Shown here piece by piece: positions 55,443 to 58,819 of a stretch of 64,000 bases of DNA; within the stretch, counting starts at the first letter, position 1, and the number at the start of each line of letters is the position of its first letter. The translations under genes were made by a program, and so were the position numbers. Under the pieces are notes generated by a model, which saw only the letters and a list, made by a program, of their open reading frames with translations, ran no database searches and was not told where the DNA came from. The stretch lies in the sequence record PZ445526.1. One strand, given 5' to 3'. This stretch comes from a phage.

Positions 55443-55507
55443 AGCGCTCTCCTCTATAAGATAATTCTATTATACCATACTCATTTTGATATGTAAACCG
55501 TTTAAAT

Positions 55508-55535
55508 GAAAAAAAAGGACTCCCGAAGGAGTCCT
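55508..55535 (-). terminator. Rho-independent terminator downstream of soc
   Basis: aggactcc-cgaa-ggagtcct hairpin (identical 20-mer to 2111..2130) with a U-run on the minus strand. Confidence 0.75.
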
Positions 55536-55540
55536 TGAAT

Positions 55541-55786
55541 TTATTCACCAGTTACTTTCCACAAATCTTCATTTGCAGTAATCCATTCAGTACGTTGATT
55601 TTCTTCATATACTGTAGAATATGCTGCTTTTTCTGAAGGGAATGTCTGGTAATGAGCACCAGAAATTTTGTGAACGTCAGAATAAAGAGGGAAAGCTACG
55701 GAAATTTCCTTTCCTTCAATTTTCTTATTTCCATCTAATTTCTGCTCAAATGTTTTGATATTAACATAACCGCGAGTACTAGCCAT
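55541..55786 (-). CDS. soc: Small outer capsid protein Soc, 81 aa
   Basis: 81-aa product MASTRGYVNIKTFEQKLDGNKKIEGKEISVAFPLY... recognised as T4 Soc. Confidence 0.92.
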   Translation of the reverse strand: MASTRGYVNIKTFEQKLDGNKKIEGKEISVAFPLYSDVHKISGAHYQTFPSEKAAYSTVYEENQRTEWITANEDLWKVTGE

Positions 55787-55802
55787 GTAATTCTCCTTTT
55801 AT

Positions 55803-56012
55803 TTAAATTACATGATTATTTATAATAAATTCTCGCGGAACGTTAAAATACCCAATTTTAGTTAATATAACAACATCGCCGTTAATAATTACCGGAGAAT
55901 AATCGGCTGGAGCATTAAATTTCCAATGGGCTCTAATATTATATCCATCAGAACCAAATGCTCGACTAGCCGGTCTCCCGGCTTTTTGCCATGCATAAAA
56001 ATCAAATTTCAT
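55803..56012 (-). CDS. Hypothetical protein, 69 aa
   Basis: ATG-initiated ORF between soc and 56. Confidence 0.5.
   Translation of the reverse strand: MKFDFYAWQKAGRPASRAFGSDGYNIRAHWKFNAPADYSPVIINGDVVILTKIGYFNVPREFIINNHVI
55817..55824 (-). promoter_or_regulatory. Late promoter box TATAAATA upstream of soc
   Basis: Plus-strand tatttata about 30 nt upstream of the soc ATG. Confidence 0.55.
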
Positions 56013-56209
56013 TTTGAATGCTCTATAATTAATTTTAAAGCTTCTTCACGCACCAACTTGCCTGGTATATGCCCAGTTTTAATTGTGTAAACTTTGTGGA
56101 GCTGATTAGATAAGAGCTCACATACGAGCTCCTTGTCATAATCTTTAAATAGCTGGTCAATACGCTTCTTGTGGGCTTTCTTGAGCTGGCGTTTATTTAA
56201 ACGAGCCAT
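56009..56209 (-). CDS. Hypothetical basic protein, 66 aa
   Basis: ATG overlaps the gene 56 stop. Confidence 0.5.
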   Translation of the reverse strand: MARLNKRQLKKAHKKRIDQLFKDYDKELVCELLSNQLHKVYTIKTGHIPGKLVREEALKLIIEHSK

Positions 56210-56727
56210 TAATAGCCTCGATCTTGACGAGCGAAGTTTTCAGCATTTTTCAGATAATAAAGTTTAAAGATTTCCTCAGCTGACATTCCAAGAGCAATGA
56301 ATTTATTCATGAAAAAGTGAAATTGATCAATCAGTTCAAATTTAATTTCAAGTTGATCTTCAGGAGATAAATCTTGAATTTTCTTGGATTGCATTTCAGA
56401 ATAACGTTTTTTCCAAGGTTTCCATACAGCAGAAGCTTCTTTTTCACCATTACTCATACCACCAAGAGAAGTATATAGCTCGCGAGTTTCATCTGCGATA
56501 TAATCGTCTTGGTTTCGCAGCCAAGCAAGAACTTCTCCTGCAGTTTCAAGTGAATCAGGATGACGATTTGTTTCTGGTTTATCATTAGCCAAACGAATCT
56601 GTAAATGCCGCTGCATGTCAAGCATAACCTGTAGTGGGTCAATATTGTGCATAATATTCTCAGCATATGCACGATTTGCTTTATCAACACCTTCGATCAA
56701 ATGAGCACATTCATTAAAGTGAGCCAT
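56209..56727 (-). CDS. 56: dCTP pyrophosphatase gp56, about 172 aa
   Basis: Recognised as T4 gp56 starting MAHFNECAHLIEGVDKA; ATG at 56727 preceded by AAAGGAAAA. Confidence 0.88.
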   Translation of the reverse strand: MAHFNECAHLIEGVDKANRAYAENIMHNIDPLQVMLDMQRHLQIRLANDKPETNRHPDSLETAGEVLAWLRNQDDYIADETRELYTSLGGMSNGEKEASAVWKPWKKRYSEMQSKKIQDLSPEDQLEIKFELIDQFHFFMNKFIALGMSAEEIFKLYYLKNAENFARQDRGY

Positions 56728-56798
56728 TATTTTTCCTTTCAATTCATGGGTTAGTAGATTAATTATACAATAAATATATAAAGCAATAAGGAGGACAT

Positions 56799-56999
56799 AT
56801 GGTACAAAAATTAATGGCACTTGTTAATGCCATCAAAGGTAATAAAAAGCGTATAGCTTTTACTATTTCTGCTATGGTAGGAATTTTACTCTGGAACTTT
56901 ATTTTATCACCTGTTGCAATTGCACATGGTATTAATATTCCAGTAGTTACTCTTGATACATTCGTAGATTTAGCATTTGCTTTAGTTGGGTTAATTTAA
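56799..56999 (+). CDS. Small hydrophobic protein, 66 aa, on the opposite strand to its neighbours
   Basis: AAGGAGG 4 nt upstream of the ATG; TATAAATA-like sequence upstream; 4-nt 3' overlap with gene 61. Confidence 0.45.
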   Translation: MVQKLMALVNAIKGNKKRIAFTISAMVGILLWNFILSPVAIAHGINIPVVTLDTFVDLAFALVGLI

Positions 57000-58024
57000 A
57001 TCTTAGCATATTTAGATAGCCGCATTTTAGCCATCAACCCCTGGGCAATATTATTTTTCATATATTCCATAATTTGTTCAGGGGTTGCACCTTCCTTTTT
57101 AATCATATCATTAACATCTTTTGATTTCCAGGGAGATTTATCCCAAAACATAACCCTTTCTCCTGCATCAACTAATTTAGTCATTCGCTTAATAGTGTCA
57201 GGATGACGAGGTTCATTATCTAAAACCCACACACGTCTATCTTTAAATGGAACAACTTCTAGGTCTAATTGACCACCCGTAATAGCTATACCATTTTCAA
57301 TAAAAAGTGAATCTATAGGTCCTTCTAGAACATATACATCACCATCTTTAACTCGTTCGACTCCATAGATTTTTGTTGCCTCAGGATAAGCTTTGATGGT
57401 TATATATTTTTGAGGAGCATCTTTCTTTAATGCACGTCCTTGAAAAGACTCAGCTTTTCCATTAGCATTATAAATTGGAATAACAAGACGAGGCTCAGGT
57501 ATTTCCTTTTTATATGTTCCGGGTGCTATACTATTAACTAATTTAGGCCATTCGGTTGTAAACCAAAGATATTTCCATTTATCCTTTGGAATACAACGAG
57601 CTTTTACATATTTTATAATTGGATGGTCTTCCGCCAGTTTATCTAATCTAACACATGACGGAAGAGATTTAATTATTTTCTTCTCAGGTTGTTTAGGAAG
57701 TTCTTTAGGTTTTTCTACTGGACGACTTTTACCTTTTTCTTTTCTTATTTCAAAGATATACTCACGATATAAATCAGGTTCAAACTCCTTTAAATATATT
57801 CCGATTGGTGCATGATAGTTACAGTTATAACAATGAATATTTCCTTCATTATTATCACCATAATACCATCCACGAGCTTTATTCTGGTCGGTTTTTGAAT
57901 CTCCACAAACAGGGCATCTAAACCGCAATTTAAAAGTTGAACTATTATTTACTTGTGTGAATTTAGGTAAATGAGCTAATGCACGGTATGCAAACTCATT
58001 ATCAATCCAAGGTATTGATGACAT
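56996..58024 (-). CDS. 61: DNA primase gp61, 342 aa
   Basis: Zinc-binding motif CPVCGDS...CYNCNYH; 342 aa; recognised as T4 gp61. Confidence 0.93.
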   Translation of the reverse strand: MSSIPWIDNEFAYRALAHLPKFTQVNNSSTFKLRFRCPVCGDSKTDQNKARGWYYGDNNEGNIHCYNCNYHAPIGIYLKEFEPDLYREYIFEIRKEKGKSRPVEKPKELPKQPEKKIIKSLPSCVRLDKLAEDHPIIKYVKARCIPKDKWKYLWFTTEWPKLVNSIAPGTYKKEIPEPRLVIPIYNANGKAESFQGRALKKDAPQKYITIKAYPEATKIYGVERVKDGDVYVLEGPIDSLFIENGIAITGGQLDLEVVPFKDRRVWVLDNEPRHPDTIKRMTKLVDAGERVMFWDKSPWKSKDVNDMIKKEGATPEQIMEYMKNNIAQGLMAKMRLSKYAKI

Positions 58025-58026
58025 TT

Positions 58027-58191
58027 TTACTCTTCTTTTTCTTTAGATTCCTCTTTTTTCTTTTTAGGAATCTGTTCAGGACCTTTATTTACTACAGCGC
58101 CTGACGTTGTTCCAGTAGAGATATTTTCAGGATTACCACCTGAATCTCCAGCTACCATATCTTCTTTAATAAATTCTTTATATGTTTTCAT
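58027..58191 (-). CDS. Hypothetical small Lys/Glu-rich protein, 54 aa
   Basis: Hand-translated MKTYKEFIKEDMVAGDSGGNPENIST...; not in the ORF track. Confidence 0.4.
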   Translation of the reverse strand: MKTYKEFIKEDMVAGDSGGNPENISTGTTSGAVVNKGPEQIPKKKKEESKEKEE

Positions 58192-58192
58192 A

Positions 58193-58819
58193 TTAACCTC
58201 TATTCATAAAAGCATTAAAAATTTGGTCATCAATAGAAACATTTACTTTAGACTGTTTTTCAGATGGCAATTCATATCCACATATTACAATTTTATGATC
58301 AATATCAAAATACACAGAAGCAATATGATTAATGATATTTTCAGTGAAGTCTAAATCAACATCAATGTCTTTTTGACCAAAGCCCAAAGGATAAATAATG
58401 CGAGTAATTCGATTATCTTTAACAAAGATTCCACCGACATACTCTGTGCTGCGTTTAAAGTCTACACGCCGACGAAATGAAAAATATTCAGGCTCTTTAT
58501 GAGCTCGGCTCATAGGGCACAACGAATAACTAGAATAAGAGATGTCAAATCCTACGCCTTCAATATGAACTAAATTGTCATGATTAAACCAATTATAATC
58601 ATATGCCAAGTCCATTAGATTGTCATATGTGAAAGGCACCGGATTAACATCATTGGTCACAAGCATATAATTAGCAACTGCTATAATTTCATTATTTTTA
58701 ACGAATACAAACCGTGATTGATGCGAATGACCTGGACCTGCGTTTTCACGATTAATGATATAACACTGGGCACCTTTATATTTGTACGTGTCTTTACACT
58801 TGTGCATTTGATAAAGCAT
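58193..58819 (-). CDS. Hypothetical protein, 208 aa
   Basis: ATG-initiated ORF overlapping the sp stop. Confidence 0.6.
   Translation of the reverse strand: MLYQMHKCKDTYKYKGAQCYIINRENAGPGHSHQSRFVFVKNNEIIAVANYMLVTNDVNPVPFTYDNLMDLAYDYNWFNHDNLVHIEGVGFDISYSSYSLCPMSRAHKEPEYFSFRRRVDFKRSTEYVGGIFVKDNRITRIIYPLGFGQKDIDVDLDFTENIINHIASVYFDIDHKIVICGYELPSEKQSKVNVSIDDQIFNAFMNRG

Follow-up and report, generated by a model that had tools for sequence, protein, structure and literature searches.

The compact dam-less gene 56/61 junction of a probable T6-like Tequatrovirus and its conserved small gene dam.1

The arrangement of genes described here is already known, being annotated in GenBank for T6, T2, T4T, RB14, RB69 and hundreds of isolates. 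In the T4T record (HM137666) the order is 56, dam, dam.1 (plus strand) and 61, with a 4-nt overlap between the last two, and segF lies between soc and 56. In this record oriA is annotated 22 nt into gene 56, whose transcript is given as the primer. The T4 dam.1 product (T4Tp032) corresponds to RB32ORF030w and RB69ORF029w, which belong to PHROG 2024. In T2, gene 56 is followed by dam, T2_31, an ORF labelled 'similar to RB69ORF029w; RB32030w' and gene 61, whereas the T6 record (MH550421) is annotated as soc, T6ORF029, 'soc.2', 56, Dam.1 and 61.

We analysed a stretch of 64,000 nucleotides of phage DNA (record PZ445526.1, hereafter the window), in which gene 56 and gene 61 lie close together on the minus strand. 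Gene 61, the DNA primase gene, occupies 56996-58024 in the list of open reading frames and is 98% identical in DNA sequence to gene 61 as annotated in T4T; it is preceded by gene 61.1 (58027-58191, minus strand, from the same list). Gene 56 (56209-56727) codes for a dCTPase/dUTPase of the T2/T6-type allele, which matches phrog_173 (labelled nucleoside triphosphate pyrophosphohydrolase) with E=1.4e-44 and has about 70% amino acid identity to T4 gp56. The gap from the gene 56 start to the gene 61 stop (56728-56995) is 268 bp. On the plus strand, the 66-codon ORF at 56799-56999 encodes a product with 98.5% identity to T4T Dam.1 and 100% identity to ORFs in RB14 (RB32ORF030w), Shfl2, SH7 and many others, and matches phrog_2024 over residues 2-66 (E=1.4e-31). 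Its sequence, its position converging on gene 61 and its predicted transmembrane (TM) helix with the family motif (see below) all place it in the Dam.1/RB69ORF029w family. The TAA of dam.1 (56997-56999) and the stop codon of gene 61 (56998-56996) share the tetranucleotide TTAA, which gives the 4-nt overlap. Length, strand, overlap and Shine-Dalgarno sequence (SD) are all shared with T4 dam.1.

On the other side of gene 56, soc, for the small outer capsid protein, is found at 55541-55786 (minus strand; Pfam Soc, E=1e-54), with its late promoter TATAAATA at 55824-55817. The 422 bp between soc and the gene 56 stop are taken up by two small minus-strand ORFs of T2/T6 type. One, of 69 aa (55803-56012; DUF7422, E=2.6e-46; phrog_5773), is called 'soc.1' in the T2 record and T6ORF029 in T6, and occupies the place of segF, at the same position as in T6 and T2. 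The other, of 66 aa (56009-56209; phrog_5782, E=5e-38), is 'soc.2' in the T2 and T6 records. PHROGs and RefSeq call the two ORFs 'head protein' or 'virion structural protein', labels that probably stem only from the earlier names soc.1 and soc.2; nothing in this analysis supports a structural role for them.

An earlier note on this DNA had described this layout, and its observation is confirmed by the sequence of 55500-58500 and the ORFs listed there. The distances of about 270 bp and about 420 bp agree with those measured, the latter leaving no room for segF, and dam and segF are absent from these positions according to both the coordinates and the ORF list. The T4T annotation agrees with the T4 order that the note gave for dam and segF, and with its placing of oriA near gene 56. 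The 66-codon plus-strand ORF, with an AAGGAGG SD and a late-promoter-like box upstream, does converge on gene 61 by 4 nt, and hydropathy agrees that its peptide is hydrophobic.

The junction region matches 565 phage records. The best matches, slur07, R5505, T6 and RB18, align in one piece over the full 2.6 kb with 98.2-98.4% identity (98.2% for T6), and the closest complete genome over 24.5 kb is FriedrichMiescher (Bas39), with 96%. T6, RB14, RB18, slur07 and FriedrichMiescher have the identical gene order, without dam or segF, at 96-98% DNA identity, and a 71-bp intergenic stretch shows 0-2 differences among T6, FriedrichMiescher and three contigs from IMG/VR, a collection that yielded only 5 loci. 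Since the T6 record has the identical order, the layout of the window is of the T6 type. T6 differs from the window in the first dam.1 codon, which is ATT instead of ATG, and its annotated product begins five codons later, at Met6. This ATT (L003 1801-1803) either serves as a start codon, or the first five residues are dispensable. We therefore read the window as part of a T6-like Tequatrovirus with the standard dam-less 56/61 junction carrying dam.1, in which dam is an accessory cassette, and give this reading a probability of about 85%.

Two further points of variation were observed in the same region. Gene 56 exists as two alleles in Tequatrovirus, with about 70% protein identity (window 56209-56747 compared with L001 2033-2568). 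The first 40 nt and the 20-nt leader are 97-100% identical between the alleles, with 47-77% identity elsewhere, except in two conserved patches (90-97%); the conserved patch covers the point at which oriA is annotated in T4T. In addition, an extra ORF of 118 aa lies between 61.1 and 61.2 in FriedrichMiescher (L014 42971-43327) and ESh17 (L002 4621-4977), and is missing from the window (at about 58190), which makes it another small indel within the same early-gene block.

The arrangement of gene 56, a small plus-strand ORF and gene 61 was found, by annotation or ORF calling, in seven genera of Tevenvirinae. Mosigvirus (moskry, 54% identity) has a small plus-strand ORF directly upstream of gene 56 that converges on the primase gene, and so do, at the same junction, Gaprivervirus TH15 (49%) and Kanagawavirus Q7622 (38%, with a further small ORF in between). 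The same arrangement is found in Jiaodavirus (Shinkou) and Gelderlandvirus (STP4-a), and RB69ORF029w also matches a member of the Dam.1 family. No dam was found between gene 56 and the small ORF in the six Tevenvirinae genera inspected besides Tequatrovirus. At this junction dam.1 is the constant element and dam the variable one.

A tblastn search with the T4 Dam protein gave no homologue: the best E was 2.7 across the 64 kb window, and 0.97 across the complete FriedrichMiescher sequence. Long ORFs of FriedrichMiescher contain a few D/N/S-PP-Y/F/W motifs, and these are at the positions of the annotated neck protein or endonuclease II, or lie antisense to an annotated gene. The absence of dam thus refers to the window and to its nearest complete relative, T6 having been inspected at the locus only. 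T6 is not known to have the adenine methylase activity of T2 and T4. Across INPHARED, Dam.1 with at least 90% identity is present in 503 records and T4-type Dam, at the same threshold, in 182 (the Dam matches of lower identity come from other genera in the rows sampled), which indicates that about two thirds of the Tequatrovirus records have no dam. The T4/T2 dam, for a GATC N6-adenine methyltransferase, uses this slot in about one third of Tequatrovirus genomes, in contrast to the window.

The position of the cassette was located by BLAST and by manual alignment with T4T, L010, T2 and ESh17, which place the junction at 56787-56788 of the window. In the alignment with T4T, homology extends to 56767 and resumes at 56788. 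By eye, the gene 56 promoter region can be aligned as far as AAGCAAT (56781-56787), after which the dam-positive genomes enter the dam stop codon. In T4 and T2, the cassette sits precisely where the gene 56 promoter and the ribosome-binding site of dam.1 would otherwise adjoin. At least three states of this slot occur: it is empty in the window, T6, FriedrichMiescher and L007-L009, holds dam alone in T4T and L010, and holds dam together with an ORF of 181-186 aa in T2, ESh17 and L011. The cassette measures about 0.9 kb in T4, and about 1.45 kb with the extra ORF in T2 and ESh17. From tblastn against both gp56 alleles, the presence of dam is not linked to the gp56 allele.

The 181-186 aa ORF of the T2-type slot (phrog_8706) is directly upstream of dam on the minus strand, as T2_31 in T2 (L012 2199-2744) and at L002 2567-3127 in ESh17, and L011 probably also has an ORF of this type, judging by the spacing of about 660 bp from the dam start to dam.1. 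Its matches in Pfam are below threshold, to DpnII, a GATC-specific endonuclease (E=0.0046; 16.7 bits, with the cut-off at 23), and also to RE_BanI, and no match was found among PDB sequences. If the DpnII match is real, T2 holds a Dam and nuclease pair in this slot.

Several lines of evidence bear on the coding status of dam.1. Among 11 Tequatrovirus copies, 12 of the 20 variable sites are at codon position 3, and the summed pN/pS is 0.14 in the dam.1 frame, whereas four other frames give 0.56-3.3. Comparisons between genera give a dN of about 0.4 and a dS of 1-2, and dam.1 is retained as an ORF in every relative examined. The alignments show that P38 is invariant and W32-N33 nearly so, within a motif that most members keep (W-N-F/Y, x4, P, x5, G, x3, P, x3, L-D/E) at 22-55% identity. 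A profile built from 14 members retrieved 15 proteins from 1.84 billion representatives, all of 41-73 aa; the near-full-length matches share the Dam.1 architecture, and the others are fragments or near-identical relatives. The low pN/pS, the dN/dS between genera and the retention of the motif argue that dam.1 encodes a protein. Judged by its pattern of substitution, dam.1 is a genuine protein gene under purifying selection in at least seven genera of Tevenvirinae.

On the minus strand, the phase of gene 61 is free of stops for 78 codons past the gene 61 TAA (56762-56995), and this frame has a pN/pS of 0.22. This value is low because the wobble positions are shared with the dam.1 frame, and the open frame is probably a side effect of this shared phase. 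A read-through extension of gene 61 was considered and rejected, as the frame has stop codons in L010 and Q7622 and no conserved start.

Upstream of dam.1, a SD sequence AAGGAGG (56788-56794, plus strand) is located 4 nt before the ATG, and a purine-rich, SD-like GGAGG or GGAG stretch precedes the start codon in all relatives. A late-promoter box AATAAATA, an A(-13) variant of TATAAATA, lies at 56769-56776 on the plus strand. According to Geiduschek and Kassavetis (PMC2988020), A(-13) is the commonest variant of T4 late promoters, with nine occurrences against 32 perfect boxes among the 50 promoters listed. Late transcription would start near 56782, which gives a predicted leader of 17 nt; a TATAAATA-type box at -13 to -6 with a short leader is expected of a T4-type late gene, and the sequence upstream of dam.1 agrees with this.

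The ATAAATA motif is depleted in the window, with 17 copies on both strands against 36.3 ± 6.6 expected, and every shuffled sequence had more; this depletion, of about two-fold, is consistent with avoidance of stray late promoters. One of the copies lies 29 nt before the dam.1 ATG. In 15 of 16 relatives ATAAATA is found 19-29 nt before the ATG, in upstream DNA that otherwise cannot be aligned. These 15 span the dam-less Tequatrovirus, T4 and T2 types, Mosigvirus, Gaprivervirus, Kanagawavirus (with an exact TATAAATA) and Jiaodavirus, and STP4-a has a degenerate box only. The distance from the box to the ATG is 26-28 nt in T4-type relatives, compared with 29 nt in the window. For RB69, the late-promoter file of Nolan et al. 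has no coordinate match at the homologous position. Taken as a whole, there is good support for a late, gp55-dependent expression of dam.1, as predicted from these signals.

On the opposite strand, gene 56 is preceded by a MotA-type middle promoter (56762-56788), formed by TATTGCTTTA (56788-56779), an 11-nt spacer and TATAAT (56767-56762). TATTGCTTTA-N11-TATAAT is a perfect match to the middle-promoter consensus (a/t)3TGCTTtA-N11-13-TataAT (PMC1524935), and by this match the element is assigned to the MotA-dependent promoters. The pattern TGCTTYA-N11-13-TANNNT occurs nine times in the window, a four-fold enrichment over the 2.2 copies expected and a count that none of 100 shuffles attained, and six of the nine matches are on the minus strand. 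In RB69 a middle promoter, Pm:16038, is predicted at the homologous spot (Nolan et al., supplement).

In the dam-less haplotype, the 11-nt spacer of the middle promoter that serves gene 56 contains the whole of AATAAATA. This differs from T4, where dam is the upstream neighbour of dam.1 and the box, GATAAATA, has an intergenic region of its own; in T2 and Mosigvirus, as in T4, the late box is outside the middle-promoter spacer. In the window, the 268 bp between genes 56 and 61 would pack three things, a MotA-dependent promoter for gene 56 on the minus strand, a late promoter with its SD on the plus strand, and dam.1 itself. The gp55-type late promoter within the spacer, followed by the strong SD, would drive dam.1 towards gene 61.

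The predicted Dam.1 protein, of 66 residues and 7.1 kDa, has a pI of 10. Five basic and no acidic side chains are found in residues 1-18, which are followed by a hydrophobic helix at about 19-42 (Kyte-Doolittle peak of 2.0 over residues 19-41) and by a second, weaker hydrophobic stretch at 47-66, which contains two Asp. An AF2 model made with the family alignment has helices at 2-12, 16-42 and 52-63, with a mean pLDDT of 79. For RB69ORF029w, one TM segment (21-41) and no signal peptide were predicted (Nolan et al. 2006, supplement). We infer with good support that Dam.1 is a bitopic inner-membrane protein with a cytoplasmic N-terminus, an orientation assigned from the basic N-terminus by the positive-inside rule. 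The short C-terminal segment is then likely to be outside or re-entrant.

Conservation is highest in the predicted outer half of the TM helix and in a short juxtamembrane stretch (W-N-F/Y, P, G, P, then L-D/E). This pattern suggests that Dam.1 may bind another envelope or membrane protein late in infection. Searches for function by homology (Pfam, NCBIfam, PHROGs, the profile search, and AF2 with Foldseek against BFVD) retrieved only uncharacterised family members, and a literature search found no mention of the protein. As a tentative suggestion, which we consider doubtful, Dam.1 might modulate envelope, lysis or assembly events through its motif acting on another envelope protein.

The conserved 200 bp could also be explained without a gene, as the untranslated 3' end of the gene 61 transcript with its terminator, in which only RNA or promoter signals are conserved. 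A terminator-like hairpin with a U-run is indeed present on the minus strand (56836-56811, with a tail to 56801), with an 11-bp stem, an AACA loop, a TTTTTG tail and a dG of about -12 kcal/mol. It lies within codons 1-13 of dam.1, some 160 nt past the gene 61 stop, and the lack of a gene here in the reference T4 annotation and of the first ATG in T6 point in the same direction. The hairpin, however, is present in all Tequatrovirus sequences examined and absent from Mosigvirus, Gaprivervirus and Kanagawavirus, whereas the ORF, SD and start are kept in seven genera; a minus-strand terminator was rejected as the main conserved element because it is genus-specific. An untranslated tail would also not account for a pN/pS of 0.14 with substitutions mostly at codon position 3, for a protein motif that persists when synonymous sites are near saturation, or for a profile that finds only short ORFs, the near-full-length ones with the same architecture. 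We regard the non-coding explanation as very unlikely. Even less tenable, and almost certainly wrong, is that this phage is unusual in having lost dam and gained a novel small gene in its place. The earlier note pointed this way by placing the ORF there 'instead' of dam, and dam and segF are missing from their T4 positions; its test, a dam gene elsewhere in the genome, found none in the window or in FriedrichMiescher. But T4 and T2, by their annotations, carry both dam and the same ORF, so that the ORF is not a dam substitute, and this had already refuted the idea. The rarity implied by the note does not hold either, as the same compact junction, near-identical in T6, FriedrichMiescher and the three IMG/VR contigs, is also that of RB14 and of most sequenced Tequatroviruses, and the dam-less state is the majority in this genus and the rule in the other genera examined. 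The interpretation given in the note is therefore partly supported.

Two other explanations accept the ORF and concern what it is for. In one, the RNA is the main product: late antisense transcription would shut off the primase mRNA, or gp55-RNAP bound in the spacer would block the gene 56/oriA promoter, with the peptide being secondary. No terminator-like site was found on the plus strand for at least 3.5 kb after dam.1, so a late transcript that is not stopped by Rho could extend into gene 61 in the antisense direction. The stop/stop overlap, which leaves no intergenic space, and the late box entirely inside the 11-nt spacer also favour this possibility. Against it, antisense transcription or promoter occlusion would not impose purifying selection at the level of amino acids, nor keep a strong SD and an ATG, the late box is outside the spacer in T4, T2 and Mosigvirus, and Rho could end transcription past the stop codon. 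We find a primarily RNA-based function improbable, although it and a protein role for dam.1 are not mutually exclusive. The protein could instead be a holin or pinholin, being small and hydrophobic with one or two hydrophobic segments and predicted late expression. Holins, pinholins and the RI/Imm-type proteins of T4 resemble Dam.1 in size, in having a hydrophobic helix after a basic N-terminus and in predicted late timing, but no sequence or profile similarity was found, with no holin match in Pfam, NCBIfam or PHROG and Foldseek matches to named holins at E >6. Dam.1 also has no charged hydrophilic C-terminal tail (residues 43-66 have no basic and two acidic side chains, and the protein ends in LVGLI), no lysis gene adjoins dam.1, and holin t, spanins and endolysin are annotated elsewhere in FriedrichMiescher. 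The name 'Holin' given in UniRef/BFVD to one member, the OE5505 orthologue, is a UniProt label without supporting features, and was rejected. A holin function has, in our estimate, a very small chance of being correct.

Our reading of the junction as a standard T6-type locus with dam.1 has consequences for how these phages are studied. The reference T4 annotation (NC_000866) has no gene at the dam.1 position, and the T4 proteome and transcriptome supplements that we checked use this annotation, which explains why dam.1 is missing from their tables. Dam.1 is thus a well conserved small membrane protein, as predicted, that is invisible to T4 omics and screens. As a rather speculative proposal, with a low chance of being right in full, Dam.1 may be an overlooked late inner-membrane protein with a specific part in the T-even late programme, such as tuning lysis, lysis inhibition or membrane-linked assembly, and its promoter, which would fire antisense into the primase gene, may also help to switch off origin-dependent functions at late times. 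With its late box inside the spacer of what in T4 is the promoter of the oriA primer, the dam-less junction is a compact arrangement. Across Tequatrovirus records, dam is shown to be a separate accessory cassette, which sits between two divergent promoters in only about one third of them.
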